Positions 7,927-64,000 of a DNA stretch of 64,000 bases are shown piece by piece. Numbering within the stretch: the stretch's first letter is position 1; each line of letters opens with the position of its first letter. The stretch lies in NCBI GenBank assembly GCA_902789395.1, contig CADANY010000014.1:11364-75363 (forward strand), given 5' to 3'. Origin of the DNA: an uncultured Bacteroidia bacterium. Its GTDB lineage: Bacteria; Bacteroidota; Bacteroidia; Bacteroidales; UBA932. Below the pieces are notes generated by a model that saw only the letters and a list, made by a program, of their open reading frames with translations, ran no database searches and was not told where the DNA came from. The position numbers and the translations under genes were made by a program.

Positions 7927-8079
7927 TTACTCCGGATCCGGCTTTTCTTCGGATTCGGTAGAACTTACGTGTTTGAAGAACTTTTCGACGCGGTGTTCTA
8001 CATCGTGGAAAGCGGCTCTTACGTGGACGTGGGAAAGGTCTGAGCCGATTTTGTGGAAGAAATCTTTCAATTTACCCAT
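7927..8079 (-). CDS. Small 50-aa hypothetical protein (not in ORF track)
   Basis: ATG at 8079, TAA at 7927-7929; reads MGKLKDFFHKIGSDLSHVHVRAAFHDVEHRVEKFFKHVSSTESEEKPDPE. Has an A-rich leader and ends 10 bp before the GNAT start. Confidence 0.6.
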   Translation of the reverse strand: MGKLKDFFHKIGSDLSHVHVRAAFHDVEHRVEKFFKHVSSTESEEKPDPE

Positions 8080-8140
8080 GGCCTTTAGTTATTTAGTTCA
8101 TGACAATATAGTAAAATAATCTCATATAGAGATGAAAATA

Positions 8141-8222
8141 CGACAAAATGACATAAGTTATTGACATTTTGTCCTCTTTTTGCGACAATTTGTCTACTTT
8201 TTGACAATGGTCTCTAGTTTGA
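8141..8222 (+). promoter_or_regulatory. Putative heat-shock promoter: three phased GACA-N3-TG(T/A)C boxes plus a sigma54-like TGG-N7-TTTGA element
   Basis: GACA starts at 8142, 8163 and 8184 (21-bp spacing); TGGTCTCTAGTTTGA at 8208-8222. The same architecture occurs upstream of grpE. Confidence 0.5.
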
Positions 8223-45981: not shown

Positions 45982-46347
45982 CTAGATGCCTAAGACCGTT
46001 GCGGGAGGGATACGAAGATTCTGGACCATTTTCCTGGCCTGCTTCAAGGTAGGCTCCGATTTTCCGGAAAGAATTTCACTGATCTTTGATTGATGCATGC
46101 CCAGAAGAGAGGCCAATCCGGATTGAGAAAGCCCCATCTCGTACATCCTTAACCTTAGGATATCCGGAAGAGTGGGTTTCTTGATCGGGAAATGAATGTC
46201 TTCATAATCGGCTGCAAGATTGGACAGAAGATCGAGTTCTATACTGTTTCTGTCATCAGAAGGAGTGCTGTCGTCGACGATTTTCAGCAATTCCTCTATG
46301 CGGGCCATGGTTGCTGCATACTGTTTTTCGTTCTCAATCTTTGCCAT
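45982..46347 (-). CDS. higA: HigA-type HTH antitoxin
   Basis: KIENEKQY...ELDLLSNLAADYE, then an XRE HTH (LSQSGLA...ISEILSGK). Confidence 0.9.
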   Translation of the reverse strand: MAKIENEKQYAATMARIEELLKIVDDSTPSDDRNSIELDLLSNLAADYEDIHFPIKKPTLPDILRLRMYEMGLSQSGLASLLGMHQSKISEILSGKSEPTLKQARKMVQNLRIPPATVLGI

Positions 46348-46348
46348 T

Positions 46349-46651
46349 TCAGATATCCTTTATTTGTCTTTCCGTCAGACCGTCATATTCTTTATGAGTA
46401 CCGATGAAACGGATATATACCATTTTGATCCGGAACAGAACAAGGGTTATTAACCTGTAATCGTTCCCTTTAATGTTGAAAACAATTCTTTTATTCCCGA
46501 CATTATCAGCTGAGTTGAAAGATCTTTTGACATCGGAAAAGTTCTCCCATTCAGCAGATTCCGTTTTATGGTACCATTCTTCCAGTGCTGTTTCAGCATC
46601 TGCATGTTTCGTATAAAAGGCGACCAAAGTCTTTCTGGCGATAATTCTCAT
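46349..46651 (-). CDS. higB: HigB (RelE superfamily) toxin
   Basis: MRIIARKTL...LEEWY...VFNIKGNDYRLI...IRFIGTHKEYD; toxin precedes antitoxin. Confidence 0.92.
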   Translation of the reverse strand: MRIIARKTLVAFYTKHADAETALEEWYHKTESAEWENFSDVKRSFNSADNVGNKRIVFNIKGNDYRLITLVLFRIKMVYIRFIGTHKEYDGLTERQIKDI

Positions 46652-46707
46652 AGTCTTTTGTTTGGTATGCAAATGTAGCGAAATAATCTGAATTTTAAAA
46701 AAATATT

Positions 46708-46870: not shown

Positions 46871-47633
46871 CCGTCGTCGGGACGGCGGACACCTGCTCCT
46901 CGGTCATAACCCTTAGATACGTACGCGTTGCAAGCATACTGCGAAGGTATACTTTTTTCGGTCCACTTGTTAAGAATTCCGCGGGTCGCCGATCATACTG
47001 CATTCCTTCATGGCATAAGTTCTGCGAAGCTTGTTGCGGTCTGGTTCCGTTAGGAAGCGGACCGCATTGTCTTACGACAAGCTTGCTGTTTTATTGTCCT
47101 GCGAACTCTCAACATTATTTTTGTGGCCCACATCCGTTTTTTGCAATACTCCGCATCGTATGTGAGAAACATTTTGTATATTTGCAATTGTCGGGAATCG
47201 GCCTAAACCCGAGTGACCGATGTACATAATGCGATGAAAGTGTTTGCTTTTATCCTGTAATTCGAAATCTGGTAAATTTTTAGTGCAGGGATAAGACAAA
47301 TGGTTCATCACCTTGTATGGTTTCATGTGCCTTTCAAGGCATATCTCCATACGGGTGTGGAGTATTGTTTTATTGGCACTAAGGCTTACCAGAGCCCCGA
47401 ATACAATAAAATCAAATGCTCCACACTTTCTTTATTGTAACTCCTTCTTGGGGCGGAAGGCGACAGGTTTACTAAGGCAAAATGACGTTTCCGACGATTC
47501 GGAATAATTCTTTTCAACAGTTGACTGATTTACAATTGTTTGCTTATTTGTTTTCATAATTAATATCAAAGATCCTTTATGAGTATTTAATGGACCGTAA
47601 TAATTTTTCAAAATGCACTGATCAATTTCATAT

Positions 47634-48002
47634 ATGGCGGATTATATATATTTCAAATCACGAGATGAGCTTTTGCGCTTTAACACGAGTGCAATTGTAT
47701 ATTTCGAAGCTATGGGGAATTTTACTAAGATAATCCTTGCCAATGGCTTTGAGGGGCATGTTTGTATTAATCTCGCCAAAATGCAGGAAAGGCTTACTCA
47801 CAGACTTGAAGAGAAAGCTAAATTATTTGTGCGTGTGGGTAAAAGTCATATCATCAATGTCACATATCTTTTACAGGTCATACCTCTTCGACATAAACTC
47901 GTTTTGAGTGATCAAAAGTCTTTCTTGTATGAATTGTCGATCTCGAAGGAAGCTCTCAGATCATTTATGGATATTATTATTGAATCGAAATCGAGCAAGT
48001 AA
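47634..48002 (+). CDS. Stand-alone LytTR DNA-binding domain protein
   Basis: Motifs IVYFEAMGNFT and FVRVGKSHIIN; no receiver domain. Confidence 0.85.
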   Translation: MADYIYFKSRDELLRFNTSAIVYFEAMGNFTKIILANGFEGHVCINLAKMQERLTHRLEEKAKLFVRVGKSHIINVTYLLQVIPLRHKLVLSDQKSFLYELSISKEALRSFMDIIIESKSSK

Positions 48003-48697
48003 TGGAGGTAATTATTGGAAGAGAAGCTAGGGTACCTAACCCCAGATTATGTTTAAAGATTGGCAATAGTGCCAAATTCATAGGAAACCCCGGTAGCGTT
48101 CCTAAAACGGTCAGTCGGAATCATTGTCAGTTAGAGATAATGGATGACGGTAAGATGAGGGTAAACAATATCTCTGACCAAAATACCCTGTTCGTAAACG
48201 GGACAGAGTATAAAACAAAGCTTATTACAAAAGATGATTTCATCCAACTTGGAGCAGATCGGTTTAATCTGGACATCCCAGCCATTCTTAAAGTTTTGGC
48301 TAGTGATAATGCACAACCTAAAACTTATAAGATTTCCCATTTACGACATATTTGGGAGGATTATACGCAAGCGAGATTGGATATCCAGATTCATGAGAGG
48401 AAGGTTAATGCCCTAAGTGCTATACCCGGAGTAATCTCAATGATTTCCATTGCCCTGAGTTTTATTGATGGATTACGTGCTGTTTTTATAAGTGTGGCTG
48501 CGATATTCGCCTTGATTTTTGCGTTAATACGGATGAAAAATGCAGGGAAAGTTCCTCTCAAGCAAAAAGAACTAGAAGACTGTTTTCAAGATGAATATGT
48601 TTGTCCGAATTGCAAGCATTACCTGGGTTACAAGAGTTATAAGCTAGTATTAAAAGATGGTGGATGTCCGTGGTGCAAAGTCAAATACACGGAATAA
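48002..48697 (+). CDS. FHA domain protein with TM hairpin and C-terminal Zn ribbon
   Basis: FHA motifs IGR, VSRNH and FVNG; two hydrophobic segments; CPNC...CPWC. Confidence 0.85.
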   Translation: MEVIIGREARVPNPRLCLKIGNSAKFIGNPGSVPKTVSRNHCQLEIMDDGKMRVNNISDQNTLFVNGTEYKTKLITKDDFIQLGADRFNLDIPAILKVLASDNAQPKTYKISHLRHIWEDYTQARLDIQIHERKVNALSAIPGVISMISIALSFIDGLRAVFISVAAIFALIFALIRMKNAGKVPLKQKELEDCFQDEYVCPNCKHYLGYKSYKLVLKDGGCPWCKVKYTE

Positions 48698-48779
48698 TCC
48701 TCTCATTACGTACATTATCGAACCTTTTCATTGTTTAGTGATTAATTAGATTGTATTTTGGACACAAATCAGAATTACC

Positions 48780-49007
48780 ATGGCAAAAGATCCCAATGTC
48801 TTACATGAAGCTGATCTGATACAAGTTTTTGATGAAACAGATGATCTCGTGCAGGTGTTAGGTGTTGTCCCCTCTGAAGAAGATGAGGAGATTCCCGTAC
48901 AGTCCGTGGAACTGGGAGATGATTCATCTGTCTTCATTGACGTTGAAGAGGATAACATAGTCTCAGATTCTTCGGACTTTATAGATTCTTCTGAACAACA
49001 ATGCTGA
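48780..49007 (+). CDS. Small, highly acidic hypothetical protein
   Basis: 75-aa Asp/Glu-rich ORF, co-oriented within the operon. Confidence 0.5.
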   Translation: MAKDPNVLHEADLIQVFDETDDLVQVLGVVPSEEDEEIPVQSVELGDDSSVFIDVEEDNIVSDSSDFIDSSEQQC

Positions 49008-49037
49008 TGTTTCTTCTGATGTAGATGTTATTGAAGG

Positions 49038-49760
49038 ATGAGATCTTTCTTACTCACATTGCTCCTGACCTTTATATGCACGCTGGCCCTTTCCCAGAAT
49101 GTATATTTGGTCGCTGTCGGAATAGCTGATTATCCGGGAACTGATAGTGATTTGGTTCTACCTGTTGCAGACGCATCGGCTATTGTCGATTTGTACAAAT
49201 CCAACAAATCAGCTCAGACATGTTTGCTTAGTAATAGCAATGCTACCAGGAGAAGTATTATTGAAACAACCAAAGCCCTTTTCTGTCAAGCCCGTTCCAA
49301 CGATATTGTAGTATTATTTTTCTCTGGGCATGGATATCCCGGTGGCTTTATGGCATATGATCAGAAGCTAGACTATGCTGATGTCAAGAGTATCTTTTCC
49401 GCTTGCAAATCCAAACACAAGATGGTATTTGCTGACGCATGTTTCTCTGGTTCCTTTAGAGACGTAAAGAGTGAGAAACAGAAGTTGAATGCAGCGTTTG
49501 ATGGCAACGTGATGCTCTTTTTGTCATCTCGGCATAATGAAACATCTATTGAAACGCCCAGTATGAAGAATGGTTTCTTCACAACATGTCTGCTCAGGTG
49601 TCTCAAAGGCGGGTCAGATTATAACAAAGACCGCGTCATTACAACAAAAGAATTGTACACTGGTGTTAGTAAAGGGGTAATACAACTATCCGATGGAAGG
49701 CAGCACCCTGTTATGTGGGGTAGTTTTAATGATGATATGGCTGTTTTAAAATGGCAATGA
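49038..49760 (+). CDS. Caspase family (peptidase C14, metacaspase-like) protein with signal peptide
   Basis: Motifs VGIADYP, FFSGHG (catalytic His), ADACFSG (catalytic Cys), SSRHNETS and QHP; hydrophobic N-terminus. Confidence 0.9.
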   Translation: MRSFLLTLLLTFICTLALSQNVYLVAVGIADYPGTDSDLVLPVADASAIVDLYKSNKSAQTCLLSNSNATRRSIIETTKALFCQARSNDIVVLFFSGHGYPGGFMAYDQKLDYADVKSIFSACKSKHKMVFADACFSGSFRDVKSEKQKLNAAFDGNVMLFLSSRHNETSIETPSMKNGFFTTCLLRCLKGGSDYNKDRVITTKELYTGVSKGVIQLSDGRQHPVMWGSFNDDMAVLKWQ

Positions 49761-50314
49761 GTGAACGTATGAATACAATTAAAATCAAGTGCCCAAATTG
49801 TGGCGCTATTCTATTAGTCCAGGATAACCCCTCAAATCAGGGGAAAAGCGTCCGTTGTCCGGCTTGCAAAGATAGGCACAAGTTCATCGAATTCAAGTTG
49901 ATTAAACCTGTTTTTGAAGAGGATAAGACTTGTATTGGACAAAGTCTCCCCAATGAAGACAGGACTCGGCTTCCGAACATGCCCGTATCCACCATAGGAT
50001 ACCTTGTGAATGAGACCGATAATCAAAAGTATTCTTTGGTCGAAGGTGTTAATCTAATAGGCCGGAAAACATATCAACAGGCTCCGCTCGCCAGTGTTCC
50101 TATTTTTACTGATGACAGAGGCTTCAGCCGTAAACATATGTTTATCGAGGTGACAAAAGGCGCGGATGGAATTATTCGTCACTTTGCGTATAATGCATAT
50201 AATAAAAACGAGACAAAAGTAAATGGGTCACTTTTAGTTGAGGGCGATAAGGTCATTTTACATAGTGGTGACCGAATTGAATCGTCACGAACGACTTTAT
50301 TATTCAAAATTTAG
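49757..50314 (+). CDS. Zn-ribbon plus FHA domain protein
   Basis: N-terminal CPNC...CPAC; FHA motifs LIGRK, FSRKH and NETKVNG. Confidence 0.85.
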   Translation: MSERMNTIKIKCPNCGAILLVQDNPSNQGKSVRCPACKDRHKFIEFKLIKPVFEEDKTCIGQSLPNEDRTRLPNMPVSTIGYLVNETDNQKYSLVEGVNLIGRKTYQQAPLASVPIFTDDRGFSRKHMFIEVTKGADGIIRHFAYNAYNKNETKVNGSLLVEGDKVILHSGDRIESSRTTLLFKI

Positions 50315-50327
50315 CTTTGTATTCGTT

Positions 50328-51257
50328 ATGAAGATTGAGGCCAAATACTTGTCTATACACGAATTAGGTCAACGGAGTAACCAGGAAGATAGTATCTTTC
50401 CTGCCATTGGTAATATAATCCCACATAATGATTTGTTCATCTTATGTGATGGGATGGGTGGTCATGCCCTAGGTGAAGTCGCCTCTCAAACTGTATGTGA
50501 TGCTCTCAGCGAATATATCCATTCTCATCCTAACGCTGATTTTGAGTCTGCGTTAAGTTATGCATATGATGCTCTAGATGCCAAAGATTTGGATGCCGAG
50601 AAAAAGATGGGGACTACATTGACGCTGGTTAAATTCGAGGCAGAGGGTTGCATCGTTGCACATATCGGCGACAGCCGTGTTTATCAGATTCGACCTTCAG
50701 AGAAGAAGGTTGTATTTGTGACTAAAGACCACTCTTTAGTCAACGATCTTGTAGATTGTGGGGAACTCACTCCGGAAGAAGCAAAACATAGTTCCCAAAG
50801 GAACGTGATAACCCGTGCCATGCAACCGCATCAGGATAGGCGCACTAAGGCAGACGTGTCCATCCTGACTGACATCAAGAAGGGTGACTATTTCTATATG
50901 TGCTCTGATGGGATGCTGGAGATCAGTGAGGACCAAGATATTATCAACGTCCTCTCCATGAATAAGACAGACGAGGAAAAGATTGCGATTTTGAGAAGGG
51001 TCACAGAAAACAATAATGACAATCATTCAGCTCACCTAATTCATATTACCGATGTGAATGATTCACCTTTTGATTCCTCAATGCCGAAGCTCAATAAAAA
51101 GTCATTTTGGCATCTGATTCTTCCTGTAATCATAACTATTGTTTTATTCGCTTTAGCTATCCTGCTTCTCCCTCGACATAAGAAATCACTTGACGAGCCG
51201 CTTAACATAGGGACGTTGACCGACACAACGCAAAATGAACTGGATATTGTACCATAA
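50328..51257 (+). CDS. PP2C/PPM-family Ser/Thr phosphatase with C-terminal TM
   Basis: Motifs RSNQED, CDGMGG, MGTT, HIGDSRVY, TKDHS, NVITRAM, MCSDG and DNHS. Start placed at the ATG at 50328. Confidence 0.95.
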   Translation: MKIEAKYLSIHELGQRSNQEDSIFPAIGNIIPHNDLFILCDGMGGHALGEVASQTVCDALSEYIHSHPNADFESALSYAYDALDAKDLDAEKKMGTTLTLVKFEAEGCIVAHIGDSRVYQIRPSEKKVVFVTKDHSLVNDLVDCGELTPEEAKHSSQRNVITRAMQPHQDRRTKADVSILTDIKKGDYFYMCSDGMLEISEDQDIINVLSMNKTDEEKIAILRRVTENNNDNHSAHLIHITDVNDSPFDSSMPKLNKKSFWHLILPVIITIVLFALAILLLPRHKKSLDEPLNIGTLTDTTQNELDIVP

Positions 51258-51354
51258 CAATAATATCAAAAATGTATAGTCCTGATTGTCGTATTATTTG
51301 ATCTGCAAAAGGATAATATAACCGAGTTATTCATTTTTTTCTGAAAACATAACA

Positions 51355-52263
51355 TTGATAATTATGAAAATCGTTGACGAATCCACTATTATCTCCCATC
51401 ATGGAGAAACCCCCGAAAAGAAAGTAAAAGCAGAACAACCGAATAACAATTATTTTTGGCGCGGCGTAGTTATTGGTGGCGTACCTGGTTTGCTGTTGGG
51501 TTCTGCCGATACAGTGTTCTCTTCCATTCATTCCTCTGTTGTTAGTACCGAAGAGGCTGCTGAGATTGAGGAGATTGACGAAGTCGCCGTACTTAAAGAA
51601 GAAGTTATTGCTCTTAAGGAAGAGATCTCTGAACTTAAGGAAGACCTTAACGCGATTCAAAACGGTAATCACGTTCCCAGCATTGGTGAAACTGTTGATG
51701 TCGCGCATGACGTTAATGACGACATGCCTTTCTCTGAGGCTTTTGCTGCTGCACGTCATGAGGTCGGTCCTGGAGGTGTGTTTATCTGGCATGGTAACGT
51801 GTACGGGACTTATTATGCCAATGAGTGGAATAACATGACCGACGAACAAAAAGCGCAATACTCGCAAGCCGTCCACAACACCAATTATAATGAAGACTAT
51901 TCGCAGACTAGCCATAATAGTTCAGGTAGTAGTGATTATCAAGAAGTTTCTCATGAAGATAGCGGTATCAAGGTCCTAGATACAGAAACCGTTGAAACCG
52001 AGGATGGCGTAATCAATGTCGCAAAGGTTGAGATAGATGGCCATTATGGAGAGATCTACGATTTGAATAACGATGGGACTCCGGATGCAGCCCTTATCGA
52101 TTCTAATGACGATGGCTTACCTGATATTGCAATGATGGATGATAATGGTGATGGCGCTATTGATGAGAACGAGGTTTATTATGATCCGAATCTCCAATTA
52201 GATGCGCTTTATGAAGATATGCCGGATTATTCCAACGATGCGGATGCGTCCAGTTTTGTTTGA
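51355..52263 (+). CDS. Membrane-anchored acidic protein with coiled coil and DxDxDG (Ca-binding-like) repeats
   Basis: Glycine-rich TM segment; coiled coil; FSEAFAAARHEVGPGGVFIWHG; DLNNDGTPD, DSNDDGLPD and DDNGDGAID. Confidence 0.7.
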   Translation: MIIMKIVDESTIISHHGETPEKKVKAEQPNNNYFWRGVVIGGVPGLLLGSADTVFSSIHSSVVSTEEAAEIEEIDEVAVLKEEVIALKEEISELKEDLNAIQNGNHVPSIGETVDVAHDVNDDMPFSEAFAAARHEVGPGGVFIWHGNVYGTYYANEWNNMTDEQKAQYSQAVHNTNYNEDYSQTSHNSSGSSDYQEVSHEDSGIKVLDTETVETEDGVINVAKVEIDGHYGEIYDLNNDGTPDAALIDSNDDGLPDIAMMDDNGDGAIDENEVYYDPNLQLDALYEDMPDYSNDADASSFV

Positions 52264-52940
52264 GAATAAGTTTGATTACTATATCCTGTGTTGAATAATT
52301 GATTATTGGAATTGAACTGTATTATTAACGATATAATGAGGCGCCTTTTGTAAATACTCAAATTAAGAGTTCGTTATGTCGGGTGCATGATACTACATCC
52401 CTTATTGGGATAGAATGGGTGAAAGAAGATGATTCAGAAGCAGGTATTTATTACTATTGGATTGATAACTCTAGGTGGAACTGCATAGATAATAATCATA
52501 ATAGCCCCTATTTCGATAACAAGCTGTTTAATTTTTATTGTATGAATTTACGGCAGGAGTAATTATTTCTGGAGCGTCAGAAGTAGGGCCAAGAAACGCC
52601 CATAGACCTAGTATTTACTTGTCAATTAGGGCAATCTAGATTAATGACGTTATTTATGTATTTCTACAATTTGAAAGATTAAACTGAAAGAATGGTTAAA
52701 CGGTGACATTAATAAGCGGCAAATTCTGCAACACTCGAATGAATCAACTCTCGTACTTCTTTCACTTCGTAATAGTGAAGCTCTCCCCCTCCCATGGCGT
52801 TCTCAAAATGATTCTATTGGAAAGGAGATTACTCTATCAACTGTAATACTTCTACAAACTAATGATGAAGATATGGGAAAAGAATTATTTGAGATTTCTT
52901 GTTTATATCGCACGTAACAGATTTTAGAAAAAATTATAAT

Positions 52941-55544
52941 ATGCAGTTAAAACCTGGAACAATACTTCAAAAAGGCAATTATCGTATTATTAAGACTATA
53001 GGCCAAGGTGGGTTTGGTATTACCTATCTTGCAGAACAGGTTGCGCTTGGTCGGAAAGTGGCAATCAAAGAGTTTTTCATGAATGCTTACTGTGATAGAG
53101 AAGATGGTAGTACGCATGTTTCTGTTCCAACTGAAAATAACCGTGAATTAGTTGAGAGTTACAAGCAGAAGTTTGTCAAAGAAGCTCAATTGATAGCATC
53201 ATTACGCAATCCCCATATCGTAAGTATTCACGACATTTTTCTCGAAAATGGAACTGCGTACTATGTTATGGAATACCTTAACAATGGCTCTCTTATGGAT
53301 ATTGTTAAGAAACGAGGACCAATCCCTGAAATAGATGCCGTAAAATACATAACCCAGGTCGGTGATGCTTTGTCTTATATCCATGACCGTAATATACTTC
53401 ATTTAGATGTTAAGCCATCAAACATTCTGATTAATGAAAATGGAGGTGTCGTTTTAATTGATTTTGGCATTTCGAAGCATTATGATGATGCAGGTGGCCA
53501 AACAAGTACTACTCCTGTCGGCATAAGCAAAGGTTTTGCGCCTATGGAGCAATACCAACAAGTAAGTGTTGCCCTTTTTTCTCCTGCTACAGATGTCTAT
53601 TCATTGGGTGCCACATTATTCTATCTACTAACTGGCCTTATCCCTCCTGAAGCGGCGATAGTTTATGAAGAAGGACTTCCGGAGATTGGGGGAAAAGTTC
53701 AAGCGAATACTATTGCAGCGATTAAAGCAGCAATGGAACCAAACCGAAAGAAAAGGATTCAGAGTGCCAAAGAATTCATAGTTTTGCTGAACTCATCTAC
53801 AAAAAAGGAAGATAGAGGCGAACCTCAAACACCAGCAGGACAACCGTTTATTAACGACCTTGAGGGACTCAATAAAGATGAATCAACCTTTGTTTATAAT
53901 TCAACCGTCAAACCATCTTCTTCATCGCATAACAAATCACCGAAAGATTATGAAGAAGATAGAAAGGAGAAAAACGGTAAAGTTAGATTATGGCCACTTG
54001 TAGCAATTATTGTTGCTGCACTGGCCGGTGTTTTCATCTTTGGAAATCCAAAAGGAGAACATGATAGTACCGACAATAATACTTTAACGGCATCCTCGAA
54101 TGATCAAACTAATGGTTTTTCCCCTGTCGAAAATGCGGCAGAGATTGACCAGCAATTAATTATTGATAAATCACTTCCAATTAAAAAAGTTCATTATCGC
54201 GGAGAAGGTTATGTTAATGGTCGGAGTTTTGATATAAAGAGAATAGAATTGGATTATGGTGAGAAGAAAGGAGAAATATATTATAGTGATCAAAAACTAC
54301 CAGTCTCCTTGTCAATACTTCCCACTAATGATGATTCTTTATTAGCTAGAATTCTTATTATTGAGCGAAATCCTTTAGCGAAAAATATGTTGTCTCGTTT
54401 GGGTGGAGATACATCTGCTATATATAAGGGTGTAATTGGAAAAGATTATATAATAAAAGGGACGGGAGAGAGTTGGAAGCATAAAAGTTTCTCGTTTACC
54501 TTTATCCCTGATTGGTTATTAGGGAATGAAGGCACCACTGAAGCAAAGAGTGAACAGGGATCATCTATAGTATTGAAAGAGACTGTACACAAAGAAAAAC
54601 CGATATTGAATATTGTGAATAGGTCGATCAAAGTAGGTGATTCTTTTAAGATAATAGTTAAGAATTGGACAGAGAGTGTTAAGTGGCAATCTTCCTCTCC
54701 AACTCATGTCTCAGTCTCTGCTACAGGTTTGGTTACTGGCGTTTCTGAGGGCGTTTCTATAATAAGGGCTAAATGCGGGAATACTACACTCGAATGCAAA
54801 GTGACGGTTCTTTCTACTCCGAAAATAGATAAAACAACTATAAGTATTGTCGAAAATGAATCGTCACGCATTACTGTCCTAAATTATAATGGTAAAACCA
54901 AATGGAGAAGTTATTCTCCAGCGATAGCGTCAGTTAATGAAGAAGGTTTAGTTGTTGCTAATAGTTCGGGAGAGACGGATATCGAAATACTTTGTGGAAA
55001 ACAGTTATTAAAATGTCATGTGATTGTTCTTAAAAGAGAGGACAGTGTTCCTCTTATTCCTACATCTGTTCAGCTGAATTATCCAGATAATGAAGTAAAA
55101 AACATCAAATGGACTTCAGATAATAAGTATATAGCAATAGTAACGGATTCAGGAATTGTAAGAGCTGTTTCACTGGGAAAAGTTAATATAATAGCTTCTT
55201 CTGGGGAGCAATCTTATGACTATTTGATAGAGGTTATTCAGAAAGATAGAAAATTAGTCCCAGTAATTCTTAAGAAACCAGAAATAATAGCTAAGAATCC
55301 ATCAACATCTACTTCAAGAGTGGTTAGTGGTTGTGTTTTAGATTCAAATGAGAAACCCATTATAGGGGCCGCTATTATAGTCCAAGGAACAACTCACGGT
55401 ACGATGACAGACAATAATGGTCTATATAAGATATCCGTTCGAACAGGAGACGTTCTTGAATTTTCCTCTCGGAAATATCGAAACCTGACGAAGAAGATAG
55501 AAGAAGGAAGAAATACTTATAATGTATACTTAGAAAAAAAGTGA
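52941..55544 (+). CDS. Hanks-type receptor Ser/Thr protein kinase with Ig-like (Big_2) and CarboxypepD_reg-like ectodomain
   Basis: Kinase motifs GQGGFG, VAIKE, HLDVKPSN, IDFG, APME and DVYSLG; TM segment; repeated W.S....ASV...G.V.A Ig-like units; C-terminal VSGCVLDSNEKPIIGA. Start placed at the ATG at 52941. Confidence 0.93.
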   Translation: MQLKPGTILQKGNYRIIKTIGQGGFGITYLAEQVALGRKVAIKEFFMNAYCDREDGSTHVSVPTENNRELVESYKQKFVKEAQLIASLRNPHIVSIHDIFLENGTAYYVMEYLNNGSLMDIVKKRGPIPEIDAVKYITQVGDALSYIHDRNILHLDVKPSNILINENGGVVLIDFGISKHYDDAGGQTSTTPVGISKGFAPMEQYQQVSVALFSPATDVYSLGATLFYLLTGLIPPEAAIVYEEGLPEIGGKVQANTIAAIKAAMEPNRKKRIQSAKEFIVLLNSSTKKEDRGEPQTPAGQPFINDLEGLNKDESTFVYNSTVKPSSSSHNKSPKDYEEDRKEKNGKVRLWPLVAIIVAALAGVFIFGNPKGEHDSTDNNTLTASSNDQTNGFSPVENAAEIDQQLIIDKSLPIKKVHYRGEGYVNGRSFDIKRIELDYGEKKGEIYYSDQKLPVSLSILPTNDDSLLARILIIERNPLAKNMLSRLGGDTSAIYKGVIGKDYIIKGTGESWKHKSFSFTFIPDWLLGNEGTTEAKSEQGSSIVLKETVHKEKPILNIVNRSIKVGDSFKIIVKNWTESVKWQSSSPTHVSVSATGLVTGVSEGVSIIRAKCGNTTLECKVTVLSTPKIDKTTISIVENESSRITVLNYNGKTKWRSYSPAIASVNEEGLVVANSSGETDIEILCGKQLLKCHVIVLKREDSVPLIPTSVQLNYPDNEVKNIKWTSDNKYIAIVTDSGIVRAVSLGKVNIIASSGEQSYDYLIEVIQKDRKLVPVILKKPEIIAKNPSTSTSRVVSGCVLDSNEKPIIGAAIIVQGTTHGTMTDNNGLYKISVRTGDVLEFSSRKYRNLTKKIEEGRNTYNVYLEKK

Positions 55545-55547
55545 GAT

Positions 55548-56868
55548 CATTGCTGTCCACTAAAAGTTGTGGACGTAGTTAAAAGTTAAAAATCAAACAA
55601 CGTGGGTTCATAGACCCCGTCAAGTTCTTTGTCAATATTGAGGTTAGATTTGTTGAATAGGTCTTCAAGAGGAGTCGTATCCGTGAGCGAGATTCCAGTA
55701 CTTGGAGCGTGTTGTAGACCGACATCTGAAGTTTCAACTTGTGGTGAACAACGGCAACCAGGCAGTATGAGATGATTGCAGTGTAGATCTGGATGCGGAC
55801 TGCATTTTCAGAGTCTCCCCAGAAGTTCTTGATCTTCAGATGCTGCTTCACCCATTTGAAGAACAGCTCCACGGACCAATGGTTCTTGTAAAAGGAGCGC
55901 TACTTCTAAAGCGGTGATATCCACTGCGTTAGTCAAGAAAACGAAGTATCTGTCCTGTTCCTCATCGTAGTACTCAACACGGCGGAGTTGCGCCGGATAA
56001 TCGTTGTGACTCTTGTACGTAGTGAGCTCGATGATGGAGTCCGACAACACATTTTGGGGCATCCTTCTCTTCCATTTGACTGCCTTGTACTGGAGGTTCT
56101 TCTTGGCTCTCACCACGAAGAAAGCACCCGCACAATGGAACCTGAAGAGCTGTGCGAAGAAGTTGTACGCACGGTCAAAGATGTAGTAAGATCCGGTCTC
56201 GACCGGTATCTCCTTCATTGCCTGAGAGTCATGAACGGACGCTGTCGTGATATGGAAAAACGCCGGCACCCGGGTTTCAACATCGTAGAGAGTATGGATT
56301 TTTATCCCGCCTTTCTTCTTGCGGAACTACGCCCCGCAGAAGACTGCAAGGCAGAGTTCGACGGTTGTGGAATCGAAGGCATAGACCGTTCCACCAAGGT
56401 TGAATATCGTCGTATCGTTCAGATTACGAGCAAGTTCCATCATTTAGAAAGCATACTCTTCGAAGATGCGGCAGTCCCGATTCTGGTTCGCTTTTGCCAA
56501 GTTGCTGCGTGTAACGGAGTCCCCGAAACCGAGGAACTTAGCCTTGCCGCTATGAGCTCCACCGCCACGATCAAATCGCGTAAACTTTCACGCCGGGAGA
56601 GTTGACCGAACATAAGGACTTTGAGCTGATTCCAGCATGAGAAGTGCTTTATGTAGCTGTCAACCTGATACTTACGGACGAGATAGTTGAACTTGTTTCT
56701 ATCCAGGTACGATGTTAATCGAGCAAAAACGAATGAACCTTCATGAATAACTGTCTGATTTACAGACAAAGTTACAATTGAAAACCGTTTACTCCTCAAA
56801 CACCTCCTAACTATCTAACTATCAATATTTTCAAAGACCTATATATAAATTTTTAGTGGACACTAATG
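55548..56868 (-). mobile_element. IS4-family insertion sequence, degenerate
   Basis: Terminal inverted repeats CATTGCTGTCCACTAAAA (55548-55565) and the reverse complement of TTTTAGTGGACACTAATG (56851-56868) match at 16/18. No flanking direct repeat seen. Confidence 0.88.
55579..56750 (-). pseudogene. IS4 (DUF4372 + DDE) transposase, frameshifted
   Basis: Three frames carry pieces: FSCWNQL...GQLSRRESLRD; HITTASVHD...FDRAY...FVVRAK; ELFFKWVKQHLKIK. The start codon appears mutated to ATT. Confidence 0.88.
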
Positions 56869-56878
56869 AATTAATGAA

Positions 56879-57334
56879 ATGAAAAAATGTGTTACTCTTC
56901 TTCCAATCATGGTATTGGTTTTTTTTTGTGCTCAACTTAAAGCTCAAGGGCTTGTCTACACTCCTTTTATTCCACAGACTTCATCTCCGTCTTATGGGAA
57001 CTACACAGTCCCAAGGTCAACACGTCCCACAGCCCGTCCGAGTTCCCAAGTGCAGACTGTTCAAGTGACCGCGTATTATGCTGATATCCTCGGTGATTAT
57101 TACAAGGTCCCCATTAGAATAGAGTATACGGTTTATTCTAATGGAGCATCTACAATTTATGTTACTGAACAGTGGAAAAGCAATAGCTATTCTGGGGGGT
57201 GGGTCAGAATTTCCCCTTTGGCTTCCATTCAAGAATGCCACCCATTGTTCGGATCTGGAAACAACGCAGAACTGGAAAAGAGTTTTATGTATAAAGCGCA
57301 GGTGGGATCACGATGGTATTACTTTGATTTATAG
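56879..57334 (+). CDS. Exported hypothetical protein
   Basis: Signal peptide (MKK...QLKA), Pro/Ser/Thr linker, aromatic-rich C-terminal domain. Confidence 0.7.
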   Translation: MKKCVTLLPIMVLVFFCAQLKAQGLVYTPFIPQTSSPSYGNYTVPRSTRPTARPSSQVQTVQVTAYYADILGDYYKVPIRIEYTVYSNGASTIYVTEQWKSNSYSGGWVRISPLASIQECHPLFGSGNNAELEKSFMYKAQVGSRWYYFDL

Positions 57335-57391
57335 GAAGTTTACGTTTCAATTATCACGATTTAAGGAGACTAATGACAGAGCGAAAGAACG

Positions 57392-57847
57392 ATGTACATT
57401 TTAAGGTCATTCGGCTTTCCGGTAATGGATGTGGACGATTTTGTTGCGAAGGCGGATTCTGCTTTCGCGGCGGAATGGAGCCCCGGGAACTATCTGCGGA
57501 AAGCCCAGGCTCTCGATATCTGCGGAGCTCATCAAGCAGCATTGAATTGTACGGATACGATTCTCGCCGTATGCAAAGACAATATCGAATTAATCTGCAT
57601 GGCCCGTCGGCTTCGTGCAATGATTTACTTGTCGACGGACGATACGGAAAAGGAGCGGGAAGAATAACGGAAGATCATCGGAGTGGCCAATGGCGAGATC
57701 GTCAGGGAGACCATGGAGGCGATGGCGAGAAGTTATTTCCACGAGGGCCTTTACAAAGAAGCACTGGTGGCTCTTCCGGACTCTCTATCCGAAGAAGGGA
57801 AAAAGTATTATCAGTTGATTATGAAATCGTTAGAGTGCAATAACTAA
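57392..57847 (+). pseudogene. TPR-like helical protein interrupted by an in-frame TAA
   Basis: Frame reads through TAA at 57665-57667 into RKIIGVANGEIVRETMEAMARSYFHEGLYKEAL... and ends at TAA 57845-57847. Confidence 0.55.
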
Positions 57848-57854
57848 AGGTTAT

Positions 57855-58448
57855 ATGGTAGGATATTTTATTATTCTGGGAGCGATTATCGCGGTACTAT
57901 TTATCTTTCTGACAATTGAGGATGCGAAGTGTGATAAGTTGCTGGATGAAAATGGTCATTTGAAGGGACTGATTGCAGGGATGGAGAAGCAACAGCAGGA
58001 TAAGCCTGAACCGCTGACGGTCGAAAAAATCGCAGATGCGGTCCGCTTTGCCGGATATGTCCCACAAGTGAAGGAGAGTGCAGTTTTTTTTATGGATGGC
58101 GGAGATCGTTATTGTATTGATGCAGATCAACTTCCTCAAATTTCTTTGGACCTCTGTTATAAAGTAGATCCGAATGAATGGGATGTGGATCTGTTAAAGG
58201 AAGCTGCGCATCAGATGTCTGACAAGTTGTTCATCATCAAGGCGCTTTTCAGCGAAGATGAAACGGGCTCGATCATACTCAGGTTTCTGGTGACGGCGTT
58301 CGGACGCGATGATGAGAGTTTCAAGCAAGATTTGGTCAATTATCTTCGTATCATTGATGAAGGGACTCGTATGTTGCATGAAATATACGAGAAGCTGGTG
58401 AAGGCGAAGAGAGATGAGGCGATGAGGGAAACAAAAGTTCTGTCATAG
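57855..58448 (+). CDS. Hypothetical membrane-anchored protein (possible YbjN-like domain)
   Basis: N-terminal TM, coiled coil and an alpha/beta domain. Family assignment is tentative. Confidence 0.6.
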   Translation: MVGYFIILGAIIAVLFIFLTIEDAKCDKLLDENGHLKGLIAGMEKQQQDKPEPLTVEKIADAVRFAGYVPQVKESAVFFMDGGDRYCIDADQLPQISLDLCYKVDPNEWDVDLLKEAAHQMSDKLFIIKALFSEDETGSIILRFLVTAFGRDDESFKQDLVNYLRIIDEGTRMLHEIYEKLVKAKRDEAMRETKVLS

Positions 58449-58484
58449 TGTTATGGAATGAAACGATTGATGAGGTAGATTCAT

Positions 58485-59441
58485 ATGGAAAAAAGTAAAA
58501 AAGTATTTTGGATTGCCCTGGTGACGACGGGCGCTTTTGCCGTCGGGATGGCCTTGTTGGGAAATGAACTGGAAGAACGAAAGATCCGTCCTGATAAGGT
58601 GTCCGGTCTTTTGTCTGCACCGTTAAAAGTGGTAATGGAGCAGGAGGATTCCGTGTTTAGCGGAATTGTGCTGATTAAACGCCTGGGAAGCCGTGAAACC
58701 CCGAGGTCGGTCAGGCTTTATAAGAGGGAAGGGTCTGGCGAGATTCAGGATTGTTCCTATTATGAAGACCGTTCGACCGTCATCCCAGGAAGGATAATGC
58801 AAACTGCTGTAAAAGCGTATTTGATTGATAGAAACTATCTCCGACCGCAGGATCCGGCTTTTCAGAGAGATAGCATCGGGGTTGGGTTTGTGAAGATGCT
58901 GAGGAATTCATATTGGATATGGGAAGATTTTATGGACAGGTTCGAGGACTATTTCGGTAGTTCTGAAGCTTGTTATCTTCCCAATAGCAAATACCATTTT
59001 GAAGAAGCACTGGAAGAGATATTCGATGGTTATGGGGTACTGCTTTCACCTGAGCAGGTCTTGACTTTCTGGGATGCCCTTTCCAATGGCGGAGTCCGCC
59101 CGGGAACGTGGTATTCACTTTGTTGCCGTATTCTTTCAGATAGATCCTTTGCTGCGGTTAGGGATTTGTGCCTTATTGAGGGAAGCCTGCCAGTCATCGG
59201 CCAGTCAGGCGGCGGTCAGCTTCCGTTTGGATTCGTGTCTGGAATCGGGAATATCAATGATTGCCCGTATCTGGTCCGATCGGATACTTTTGTGGGTGCA
59301 TTCCCGGCGGATGAGCCGAAATATACGATGTCATTGACACTGTTCAGCATTGCCGGTACGCCTCAAGCCGTTCTTGTACAGGAATTATTCACTAAAATGG
59401 GAGAACTCATTCTTGAAAGCGAAGAAATATGGAAAGAATAA
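58485..59441 (+). CDS. Penicillin-binding-protein transpeptidase-like protein, catalytic motifs degenerate
   Basis: FVGAFPADEPKYT resembles FtsI-type C-termini. The SxxK position reads PGRIMQ and the KTG position reads GQSG. Confidence 0.65.
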   Translation: MEKSKKVFWIALVTTGAFAVGMALLGNELEERKIRPDKVSGLLSAPLKVVMEQEDSVFSGIVLIKRLGSRETPRSVRLYKREGSGEIQDCSYYEDRSTVIPGRIMQTAVKAYLIDRNYLRPQDPAFQRDSIGVGFVKMLRNSYWIWEDFMDRFEDYFGSSEACYLPNSKYHFEEALEEIFDGYGVLLSPEQVLTFWDALSNGGVRPGTWYSLCCRILSDRSFAAVRDLCLIEGSLPVIGQSGGGQLPFGFVSGIGNINDCPYLVRSDTFVGAFPADEPKYTMSLTLFSIAGTPQAVLVQELFTKMGELILESEEIWKE

Positions 59442-60172
59442 ACAGTCGATATGAAAATGCTTCTGTAGTTATAGCGGGAGCGGCATGCCTGCCGATTCTT
59501 GTCTCGTGGTTGCATTTGCCGGGATTCAGATGTCTGACGGTCTTAAGCTATATGGTTTTCAGCGCCTGGATTGGGCTTCTTTTAGGATCATTGATAAAAA
59601 GGCGCCGGTGGTGGATGCTTGTGCTGATTCTCAGCGTCGCCTTCGTCGGCATGATCTATTACAGGCAAGTGATGGACCATGGGTATATGTTGATTCACAC
59701 GGTGACCCCTTTTTTGATGTCTGCCGGATTGGGGTGCCTGTTCTCTTTGGGATGGGTCCGGACAGCGGAAGGGCAAAAAGGCTGGGAGTTCTTGTTCCTG
59801 CTGCTGACCATAACTTTTTGTTGGGTAGCTATTTCCGTTATTCATGAAAGACTTGTGAGCGGGATGTGGATCCCGGAGCATCAAGACATGGAGCGGTTAA
59901 TGGAGAATCTTTCTGCCGATGCGGAGATTCTGTTGTTTTTCCCACTGATGTACAGTCTGGTTATGTTCGCCTTCTCCAAGACGGGACTATGGCTGGGCCG
60001 CCAGAGTTGGTTTCGGGGAATCGTTTTGGTCCCGGTCGTCCTCTCTTTCGTTAGCGCGGCTGGTCGGATAGGGTATTACTGGCGCGAACAGTTCCTGATA
60101 CCTTTCCTAGTTCAGCCGTTGACTGTTTGGATAATGATAAATATTGTACATTGGGTTATGGACAGAAAATAA
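59429..60172 (+). CDS. Polytopic membrane hypothetical protein
   Basis: Several hydrophobic segments (about 6-7 by eye); overlaps the previous stop. Confidence 0.7.
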   Translation: MERINSRYENASVVIAGAACLPILVSWLHLPGFRCLTVLSYMVFSAWIGLLLGSLIKRRRWWMLVLILSVAFVGMIYYRQVMDHGYMLIHTVTPFLMSAGLGCLFSLGWVRTAEGQKGWEFLFLLLTITFCWVAISVIHERLVSGMWIPEHQDMERLMENLSADAEILLFFPLMYSLVMFAFSKTGLWLGRQSWFRGIVLVPVVLSFVSAAGRIGYYWREQFLIPFLVQPLTVWIMINIVHWVMDRK

Positions 60173-60180
60173 ATACGATC

Positions 60181-61320
60181 ATGAAAGGTCGTGATTATTT
60201 GATTCTTATTATCTCTTTATCGGTTCTTTTACTTTCAAGTTGCAAGAGCCGGAATGGCCAACCCGGTATAAGACAAACGGAGGTGCAAACCGTTTTGGAA
60301 AAACTGGATTATACTCCAAAGACAACGTTTACCGGGATGGAGCAGATGTCAGCAAAGATATCTGAAGAAGAAGCAGGGATTGCGATAGGGGAGGTGAGTA
60401 AGCAGTTCCTTGAGGGGTGCTACTATATCGGGGACACATCGACGCCCTTTCTGGCGTCTTTCGCCGAGTGGTGGAACCGCCTGGCATTCCTCCGTCGTTT
60501 TGCCAGTGCCGAGGAAGTGTTTGAAAGAGTTAATACGAATATAGAAGATTCACTGACGACTGAAACGGTGCGGGGAACGATTTCTTTGTTGCCGGATGAA
60601 TACGATCGTGCATTCCGGGATAAGAAACTTCAGTCGAAAGCAAAAGAACTTGTCCGATTATTTAGAACAATAGATTATACTGCCCAGGAAACTCAAAAAA
60701 TGTACAAGTGCTTTATGGACCTGGCCGGAGCCCCTTATCAAACACCTGATTTCATTACGGAGGAAGATAAAGATGCAGTAGATAATGATTACTGGGTGCT
60801 TTATGATAAGTCGAAATACGTGGAAAACTATGAGTCGATCCGCGACAAGCGTAAGCCAGAAGAGGTCGACGAAAAGGAACTCGAGAAAATGAGCCTCCCG
60901 CTGCAGCATGCATACATCAATGCAAAAGACTTCGATGCGAAGTGCATTTATGCCTTGGAGATGGGGTGCTATGGTTTTCCGGAAGTGATAGATTATCTTG
61001 GGGAGTTGATCGAAGATGGCCGTTATTCGAAGTATCTTTTTGAGGTATGGATATCCTGGCGACTCCGTGCCCAGGCGAGTGTGTTCGGCAGATCGACGTG
61101 GTCTGAGATTCCGGATAACTTGTACGACAATGCCCGGCTACTCGTTGCTCAAACCTATGTACGACATATCATTGAGAATCCCTCAGATGCGCAGGCCAAG
61201 TATTTCCTGATGGCCCTCATTTATACGGAAAATCTCCACCGTGCCGGTGGGCTTTACGGGAATGAGGCAATGGCTGCCGAAGTAGCACTTCGGACGCAGT
61301 ATTTCCTGCCAGTAAAATAG
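60181..61320 (+). CDS. Hypothetical lipoprotein
   Basis: Lipobox LLSSC after MKGRDY; helical acidic body. Start placed at the ATG at 60181. Confidence 0.75.
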   Translation: MKGRDYLILIISLSVLLLSSCKSRNGQPGIRQTEVQTVLEKLDYTPKTTFTGMEQMSAKISEEEAGIAIGEVSKQFLEGCYYIGDTSTPFLASFAEWWNRLAFLRRFASAEEVFERVNTNIEDSLTTETVRGTISLLPDEYDRAFRDKKLQSKAKELVRLFRTIDYTAQETQKMYKCFMDLAGAPYQTPDFITEEDKDAVDNDYWVLYDKSKYVENYESIRDKRKPEEVDEKELEKMSLPLQHAYINAKDFDAKCIYALEMGCYGFPEVIDYLGELIEDGRYSKYLFEVWISWRLRAQASVFGRSTWSEIPDNLYDNARLLVAQTYVRHIIENPSDAQAKYFLMALIYTENLHRAGGLYGNEAMAAEVALRTQYFLPVK

Positions 61321-63619: not shown

Positions 63620-64000
63620 ATGACAGATCCCATCACATCCCCCCTTGAACGACCCTCGACGGCACTGGATCTTCTCAATGCGCTCAACAGCATAAAGAGT
63701 AAGGAATTCGGTGAAAATGCTTTCCTGTTTACGATGGAACAGATGATGTATTTCTCCTCCCCAAGGAGGAACTTCCTTCATTACCGACACTTTGTCATCC
63801 CGAAACGGAACGGTGGTGTACGGGAGATTACTGCCCCGAGGAACATGCTGAAGTCTCTACAGACGGTCATTGCCAGGATGTTGCAAGATTTTTATGAGCC
63901 GTCATCGGCCGTGACAGGGTTTGTTCCGGGCCGTTCTGTCATGAACAATGCTTTGAAGCATGTCCGGAAGAACTATGTGTACAATGCCGACCTCAAAGAT
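63620..64000 (+). CDS. Retron-type reverse transcriptase (5' part, runs off the window; not in ORF track)
   Basis: Reads MTDPITSPLERPSTALDLLNALNSIK...YRHFVIPKRNGGVREITAP...VTGFVPGRSVMNNALKHVRKNYVYNADLKD, containing the retron NAxxH motif and the first catalytic Asp (DLKD). Confidence 0.88.
   Translation, partial: MTDPITSPLERPSTALDLLNALNSIKSKEFGENAFLFTMEQMMYFSSPRRNFLHYRHFVIPKRNGGVREITAPRNMLKSLQTVIARMLQDFYEPSSAVTGFVPGRSVMNNALKHVRKNYVYNADLKD

Follow-up and report, generated by a model that had tools for sequence, protein, structure and literature searches.

A probable trans-envelope phosphothreonine signalling module of Bacteroidota with a predicted exported caspase-fold protease

The DNA analysed here, hereafter the window, is a stretch of 64,000 nt from an uncultured Bacteroidia bacterium (Bacteroidales, UBA932; assembly GCA_902789395.1, contig CADANY010000014.1, positions 11,364 to 75,363 of the forward strand). 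Between positions 47634 and 55544 it carries eight open reading frames (ORFs), all on the + strand, which together probably make up a trans-envelope signalling module of Bacteroidota that works through phosphothreonine and is accessory and horizontally mobile. The ORF listing and Pfam searches bore out the eight-gene composition, the domains and the catalytic motifs that a preliminary description, made from the letters alone, had assigned to this region. The block is indeed AT-rich and co-oriented, as described there, with a GC content of 0.35–0.42 over 47–56 kb against 0.52–0.58 in the native flanks. The combination of a membrane kinase, a phosphatase, two phosphothreonine readers, an exported caspase-like protease and a DNA-binding regulator most likely points to envelope sensing, and the topology of the receptor kinase and the swapping of its ectodomains, reported below, agree with the earlier suggestion of a system that senses at the envelope.

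The first two genes encode a stand-alone LytTR DNA-binding protein of 122 aa (47634–48002; PF04397) and a protein, here FHA-TM, made of an FHA domain, a two-helix membrane hairpin and a C-terminal zinc ribbon of the CxxC...CxxC type (48002–48697; Pfam FHA and hydropathy), the two ORFs having the single base at 48002 in common. They are followed by a small acidic protein of 75 aa (48780–49007), recognised as an ORF with homologues at the same position elsewhere, by the predicted exported, minimal caspase-fold protease of 240 aa (49038–49760; Peptidase_C14, Pfam E 2e-19) and by a soluble protein with an MJ0042-type zinc ribbon and an FHA domain (ZnR-FHA, 49757–50314; Pfam, NCBIfam). A PP2C phosphatase of the Stp1/IreP-like type with a C-terminal membrane anchor (50328–51257; Pfam PP2C_2 and PP2C) and a predicted acidic single-pass (N-in) membrane protein of 299 aa (51364–52263), defined by homologue alignment and with no family match, come next. 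The last gene, a receptor Hanks-type Ser/Thr kinase of the non-RD kind (52941–55544; Pfam Pkinase E 1e-40), lies beyond a non-coding spacer of 677 nt (52264–52940). The spacer was rejected as a repeat, being single copy in the genome, and as a gene, having no ORF longer than 59 aa inside and being closed in one translated frame.

Comparison with the closest relative, locus L046 (homologous loci are designated by L and a number), suggests that the start codons of ZnR-FHA, PP2C, the acidic membrane protein and the kinase should be re-set to 49757, 50328, 51364 and 52941, respectively. The start at 49757 gives an ATGA overlap with the caspase stop codon, likewise found in L046; PP2C probably begins at ATG 50328 instead of TTG 50238, and both remaining starts are ATG. 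The overlaps previously indicated at 48002 and at 49757–49760 are thus a one-base overlap and, once ZnR-FHA is started at 49757, an ATGA overlap. As only 13 nt separate ZnR-FHA from PP2C, overlaps and short gaps argue for coupling within the LytTR/FHA-TM pair and within the caspase/ZnR-FHA/PP2C group.

The same genes are found together in other genomes, a point on which the preliminary description had made its case depend. The caspase has about 1960 database relatives, the neighbourhood of seven of which was read, and the window proteins were mapped by tblastn at 21 Bacteroidales loci. The gene set recurs on about 24 other independent contigs from Prevotella/Segatella, Alistipes, Muribaculaceae, Butyricimonas and Bacteroidaceae, a co-occurrence far beyond chance, and a chance juxtaposition of unrelated genes was rejected on this conservation. 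Two conserved orders are seen across Bacteroidales. The order of the window, with all or all but one of the eight genes, is present in L001, L004, L015, L045, L046 and L047 (no homologue of the acidic membrane protein was seen in L004). The second order, LytTR / FHA-TM / kinase / ... / acidic protein / caspase / ZnR-FHA / PP2C / kinase, was found in about 15 further loci of at least six lineages (among them Prevotellaceae, Alistipes, Muribaculaceae, Butyricimonas, Bacteroidaceae), often with an extra BspA-type leucine-rich repeat protein and two small unknown proteins. A plasmid of Runella rosea (Cytophagales; NZ_CP030851.1, 1–6775, L097) encodes, in succession, PKD, VWA / FHA / acidic-domain protein / FHA / PP2C / caspase, with generic RefSeq annotation only; the 12 kb inspected contain neither a kinase nor a LytTR gene. 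By its gene content, this reduced version shows that the core of the putative module predates Bacteroidales.

Catalytic and phosphothreonine-binding residues are intact in the writer, the eraser and the readers. In the translation of the kinase the motifs GQGGFG, VAIKE, HLD (non-RD), DFG and APME were all read, followed by a transmembrane (TM) helix at residues 347–373 and by an ectodomain of three Big_2 domains and a CarboxypepD_reg domain (Pfam Big_2, CarbopepD_reg_2). The PP2C translation retains RSNQED, DGMGGH, GDSR, DG and DN and has its TM helix at residues 258–285; the NCBIfam model Stp1_PP2C_phos scored 160 bits, under its cut-off. Among 19 homologues of ZnR-FHA, the pocket residues GR, SR, H and N vary little or not at all, and the same holds for three Cys of the zinc ribbon; in FHA-TM residues G6, S38/R39, H41 and N61 together with four Cys are conserved among 15 homologues. 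Judged by these residues, the FHA readers look competent.

That the copy in the window is inert cargo, decaying or silent, with its kinase uncoupled by the 677-nt spacer and an insertion sequence (IS), is an explanation we consider very improbable. In its favour, the spacer is exclusive to the window copy, the counterpart gap being 20 nt in the closest relatives L046 and L047; a frameshifted IS abuts the kinase gene, and the GC content has not been ameliorated to the host value. Against this, all eight frames are intact with every catalytic residue present, and protein identity to L046 is high and even (69–89%), as expected under purifying selection.

A threonine motif, (D/N)E-x-T-x-(Y/F/I/L/V), is common to the kinases and the acidic membrane proteins. 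It occurs in one to four copies per tail of the acidic-protein family, often as DExTQ(F/Y)D, and all copies in the alignment of this family (A1) are in the N-terminal tails. With 23 copies (3.86 per 1000 aa), the acidic proteins are about 40-fold above the background given by the unassigned ORFs of the same loci (9 copies in 93,046 aa, 0.097 per 1000 aa). The module kinases have 11 copies (0.70 per 1000 aa, about 7-fold above background), 10 of which lie at residues 294–315, right after the catalytic domain; three copies (0.72 per 1000 aa) were counted in the ZnR-FHA family and none (0 per 1000 aa) in the PP2C, caspase, LytTR and FHA-TM families. In the window the motif reads DESTIIS in the cytoplasmic tail of the acidic protein and DESTFVY in the juxtamembrane linker of the kinase. 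Acidic residues before the Thr and a position in the juxtamembrane linker are typical of autophosphorylation and FHA-docking sites of bacterial Hanks kinases. The enrichment in tails and linkers thus makes these threonines candidate phospho-sites and candidate docking sites for the FHA domains, and the motif offers a concrete and cheap experimental entry point.

Conservation is distributed unevenly along the kinase. Core proteins are 69–89% identical to those of L046 and the kinase domain 75%, the kinase ectodomain being only 22–26% identical. Elsewhere the ectodomains are of the FGE-sulfatase (L001, L004), PEGA/Lcl_C (L045) or other types, and other loci have one to four kinases each, together with LRR_5 or Lcl_C accessory proteins. 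On this comparison the ectodomain is swapped between close relatives, the sensing end of the kinase being modular and fast-changing, as would be expected of a receptor for variable external ligands. That ectodomains can be exchanged suggests that the sensors form a family responding to different cues from the envelope or the surface.

The Peptidase_C14 protein has an N-terminal signal peptide and the motifs FSGHG and DACFSG, with the catalytic H98 (SGHG) and C135 (DAC) invariant in 37 of 37 sequences. A signal peptide, in some cases of lipoprotein type, is present in all 25 homologues examined. The AlphaFold2 model of the protease (pLDDT 87.8) is confident except for a 16-residue loop following the catalytic Cys, and its best Foldseek matches were GSU0716 (3bij), the MALT1 paracaspase, metacaspases and caspases (E about 1e-11 to 1e-8, TM score about 0.7); a sequence search of the PDB gave no match, so that the fold search alone succeeded. 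By its catalytic residues, modelled fold and signal peptide, this is a genuine minimal caspase-fold enzyme, predicted to be exported. The membrane would then separate it from the kinase, the phosphatase and the FHA domains. It may be an output of the system and could equally be an input. A phage origin of the module was rejected, because no relative of the caspase was found in any record of the phage collection searched.

The acidic membrane protein (64 D/E versus 12 K/R) has homologues in 19 of the 21 Bacteroidales loci, mostly directly 5' of the caspase gene and often overlapping it. In the second gene order the two genes directly adjoin or overlap, and in Segatella copri and Leyella stercorea they occur as a stand-alone pair. 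Alignment A1 gives a layout of N-terminal tail, Gly-rich TM segment, coiled coil, a stretch of about 55 aa that hardly varies (consensus VATGVxDDMSFGEAFAAARAEVGPGGxFEWHGNVYGTY), a variable acidic linker and a beta domain with DxDxDG-like repeats. Basic residues before the TM segment and acidic residues after it predict an N-in, C-out orientation by the positive-inside rule, and the AlphaFold2 model exceeds pLDDT 90 at residues ~110–175. Searches of Pfam, NCBIfam and PDB sequences gave no match, and Foldseek none below E 0.75. By its conservation and predicted topology, this protein is a single-pass core member of the module.

The small acidic protein (23 D/E and 1 K/R) has no export signal and no Pfam match, and homologues at the equivalent position in L046, L045, L015, L001 and L004. 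Its alignment (A7) matched the beta domain of the acidic membrane protein in an hhalign comparison with A1 (probability 83%, E 9e-6), by which it is a free copy of that domain. The module holds two conserved protein families without a Pfam, NCBIfam or fold match. A radical-SAM/SPASM gene was also observed inside the Butyricimonas module (L020, 998–2460), between LytTR and FHA-TM, and another (L025, 1936–3045) 5 kb upstream of the acidic-protein/caspase pair of Segatella copri; these neighbours may hint at peptide maturation or be a coincidence.

On the cytoplasmic side, the LytTR domain (PF04397, E 2e-7, profile positions 2–96 of 98) covers residues 12–114 and is accompanied by no receiver and no other domain. 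Homologues with 46–78% identity are present in at least 13 loci, and the LytTR and FHA-TM genes are adjacent in 13 of the 16 loci having both. The hydropathy of FHA-TM peaks at residues 135–181, and its Pfam matches are of FHA type alone, with no inhibitor domain of the LytTR regulatory systems (LRS). In these systems, such as HdrRM and BrsRM of Streptococcus mutans, a membrane protein keeps a stand-alone LytTR protein inactive, which is an established design (Zou et al. 2018, PMC6193735). The pair described here is alike in that a receiver-less LytTR gene lies beside, and in this case overlaps, a gene for a membrane protein. It differs in that the membrane partner has an FHA domain and a zinc ribbon without LRS inhibitor domains, and in that the pair sits inside a kinase/phosphatase/caspase module. 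By analogy, FHA-TM is a candidate membrane tether or anti-activator of LytTR, the pair may work like an LRS, and we infer that LytTR would provide the transcriptional output.

These observations can be joined into a proposed mechanism. One or more receptor Hanks kinases, whose ectodomains would be freely exchanged, would be switched on by a periplasmic or surface ligand and would phosphorylate the [DN]E-x-T-x-hydrophobic motifs of their own juxtamembrane linker and of the cytoplasmic N-tail of the acidic protein. Both FHA/zinc-ribbon proteins would read these marks. FHA-TM, which would be held in the membrane by its hairpin and translationally coupled to LytTR, probably keeps the regulator inactive until binding of phosphothreonine by its FHA domain sets LytTR free, or acts the other way round; this would give rise to the transcriptional output, and the membrane-anchored PP2C would reset the system. 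On the periplasmic side, the ectodomain of the acidic protein would pair with the exported caspase-like protease, the two genes lying side by side or overlapping in most loci, and the single-pass protein would in this way couple the cytoplasmic phospho-code to periplasmic proteolysis, in either direction. A bolder proposal, which we put forward tentatively and regard as rather doubtful, is that the acidic protein represents a transmembrane coupler of a new kind, with a phosphothreonine barcode in its tail that is written by the receptor kinases and read by the FHA proteins, and with periplasmic domains that bind and gate the caspase. If so, Bacteroidota would have a device able to work both ways: Ser/Thr phosphorylation in the cytoplasm would control proteolysis beyond the inner membrane or, alternatively, periplasmic cleavage would trigger a phospho-dependent LytTR switch.

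Several findings weigh against a single signalling module working in this way. The three sizeable intergenic gaps of the block (82, ~106 and 677 nt) would permit internal promoters and two or more transcription units, and the upstream regions of 12 loci showed no common motif by eye and no conservation between loci. Both DESTIIS and DESTFVY lack the +3 Asp present in many relatives, 18 of the 27 kinases in the loci are without the threonine motif, and about one in three FHA-TM homologues has Lys in place of the pocket Arg. The compartment logic is incomplete as well, for the small acidic protein lacks an export signal, whereas the domain of the membrane protein to which it is homologous is predicted to lie in the periplasm. 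Finally, the direct repeats that define LRS were found neither upstream of LytTR nor in any intergenic gap (9-mers with at most one mismatch and 19–23 nt spacing); in view of the missing autoregulatory repeats the module is not classed as an LRS.

Comparison with related genomes supports the view, already expressed in the preliminary description, that the copy in the window was horizontally acquired. Besides the drop in GC, the caspase orthologue is absent from 24 same-genus genomes. The acidic-protein family, the most specific marker, has members in 12 of the 301 genomes, or 12 of the 208 genera, sampled in the order; two further same-genus genomes lack it. Such patchy presence indicates accessory cargo, gained here by transfer. 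The nearest relatives are metagenome contigs with 77% nucleotide identity in unrelated contexts; homology to them begins two bases 5' of the LytTR start codon, and an IS element lies upstream there. In the window the module is flanked on the left by a HigB-toxin/helix-turn-helix-antitoxin (HigA) pair (45982–46672, - strand), directly after rplI and at the left margin of the variable region, and on the right by a frameshifted IS4-type transposase (55579–56799, - strand; DUF4372 and DDE_Tnp_1 in separate frames), which lies at the right edge of the module. No clean empty site that would fix the ends of the island exactly was found: synteny with same-genus genomes stops right after rplI, and no part of the window between 46 and 64 kb turns up again within 18 kb in three relatives.

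Mobility, together with the exchangeable sensor domains, is also what might be said for an anti-phage or conflict system, in which the kinases would detect phage attachment or a competitor and the phospho-relay would license the caspase and a LytTR regulon to act as effectors, either by harming the invader or by killing or arresting the cell itself. We hold this to be unlikely. The module is patchy and mobile, with HigBA and an IS element beside it and a retron-like reverse transcriptase at a distance of 8 kb; in L001 and L004, however, it sits between housekeeping genes. The defence caspases known to us are cytoplasmic, and a protease that is exported in all homologues examined is atypical of them. 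The lack of any caspase relative in the phage records also speaks against this role, as does the lack of an NTPase, nuclease, pore-forming or gasdermin-like partner in the module. Of the PADLOC and neighbourhood searches recommended in the preliminary description, the latter recovered the recurring gene set, while PADLOC-DB 2.0 gave weak matches (PDC-M21C, PDC-S64 and 'caspase') that are generic to kinase, PP2C and caspase domains, with PDC-S64 at E 7e-5 and no system model satisfied. Caspase-fold proteases do occur in conflict systems (PMC7159879), and kinase-phosphatase modules can mediate defence, as KKP does (PMC11341870). None of the components of the vWA-MoxR or ternary conflict systems (vWA, MoxR AAA+, VMAP; Kaur et al. 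2020) is present in the module of the window; a VWA gene adjoins the Runella version. Comparative genomics of conflict systems names FHA and PP2C in other contexts only. A defence role is possible, with nothing specific to support it.

Upstream of the signalling module, the low-GC island is headed by a structured leader or small-RNA-like element of ~217 nt (47222–47438, + strand; covariance model R1, 203.8 bits), with a folding z-score of -5.3 and no Rfam match at E<=1. A terminator-like hairpin lies 3' of it at 47489–47504. It is preceded by a Bacteroidetes-type -7 promoter box, TATATTTG (47177–47184, + strand; pattern scan), the closest TAnnTTTG to the LytTR start on this strand, a second being at 47116–47123. 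The TATATTTG box also precedes the homologous RNA copies in L015 and in contig C1 of the same genome. A further -7-like box, 5' of the small acidic gene, deviates by one base in the window and has the canonical form in L046 and L045. Of 301 genomes of the order, 71 contain the RNA-like element according to model R1. Copy numbers range from one to six or more, and copies often lie close to contig ends; the genes 3' of them are unrelated, and no neighbour recurs. The element was rejected as a part of the module, being present in 3 of 28 sources (the window and the module loci) and having unrelated downstream genes elsewhere.

The copy in C1 (150975–151191; L050 ~7976–8192) and that in the window, the two examined here of three matches in the genome, both mark the exact switch from native 55% GC to a low-GC island. 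The second island (GC 0.32–0.40; C1 ~151000–160000, L050 8000–17000) follows directly after nqrF, again with the leader element first. Its genes specify proteins of 696 aa, 301 aa (a coiled-coil membrane protein) and 835 aa (with an Hsp70-like N-terminus, DLGTTNS), perhaps as a further accessory system. Downstream of the module, five co-oriented ORFs of 151–397 aa (56879–61320, + strand; GC 0.45–0.49) lie between the IS remnant and an MreB-like gene, several with signal peptides or TM segments and none with a Pfam match. An open frame with reverse-transcriptase-like motifs (NGGVREITAP...) runs off the window end at 63620–64000 (+ strand), about 8 kb downstream of the module.

To our knowledge, Ser/Thr kinase signalling in Bacteroidota is barely explored, and carriers of the module include abundant gut and rumen lineages (Prevotella/Segatella, Alistipes, Muribaculaceae). 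The full-text literature contained no description of the module that we could find, in agreement with the earlier statement that no characterised system has this exact composition. As far as we could find, a link across the membrane between Hanks-kinase signalling and a caspase-fold protease has not been described in bacteria, and this would be the first known case of a kinase/phosphatase/FHA circuit genetically tied to an exported caspase-fold protease and a stand-alone LytTR.

Among known systems, the actinobacterial cluster fhaA-fhaB(fipA)-pstP-rodA-pbpA-pknA-pknB, in which FHA proteins dock on phosphothreonines of the kinase juxtamembrane regions, combines matching parts in one operon, namely receptor Hanks kinases, a membrane-anchored PP2C and two FHA proteins. 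This likeness raises the question of a housekeeping-type control of envelope growth or surface remodelling, with the caspase as a periplasmic processing enzyme; every component is at the envelope, and some genomes embed the module among core genes. Such a role seems to us improbable, more so than one in conflict. The module occurs in ~4% of the sampled genomes of the order and is absent from same-genus relatives, and so cannot be essential. It is accessory and mobile, unlike the core actinobacterial cluster, and it has neither PASTA sensors nor cell-wall synthesis genes such as rodA or pbpA; Pfam found no PASTA, FtsW/RodA or transpeptidase domain in the eight proteins. The exported caspase, the acidic single-pass protein and LytTR are additions without a counterpart in that cluster.

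The threonine phosphorylation pathway of the Pseudomonas aeruginosa H1 type VI secretion system (T6SS; PpkA-PppA-Fha1-TagQRST), in which a trans-envelope signal activates a receptor Hanks kinase, is similar in leaving the reading of the mark to an FHA protein and its removal to a PP2C. No T6SS family matched the eight proteins or the ten flanking ORFs tested, and the output of the module would presumably be transcription and/or periplasmic proteolysis instead of the assembly of a secretion machine. The caspase-like protein has the caspase-haemoglobinase fold and the His-Cys dyad of orthocaspases and metacaspase-like C14 proteins (GSU0716, 3bij), and it differs from prokaryotic caspase homologues in being minimal (240 aa), with a signal peptide, without a sensor or adaptor domain and with a short 16-residue linker past the catalytic Cys, and in its genetic tie to a Ser/Thr phospho-relay. 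KKP of Pf prophages, whose kinases and phosphatase control Pf virion production and defence against lytic phages, is likewise a mobile Ser/Thr kinase and phosphatase cassette with a regulatory role, and the abstract of PMC11341870 does not name FHA readers, a caspase or LytTR among its components. Compared with all these, the module is a new architectural variant of Hanks-kinase/PP2C/FHA signalling, distinguished by a predicted exported caspase, a putative acidic coupler and a probably tethered LytTR.

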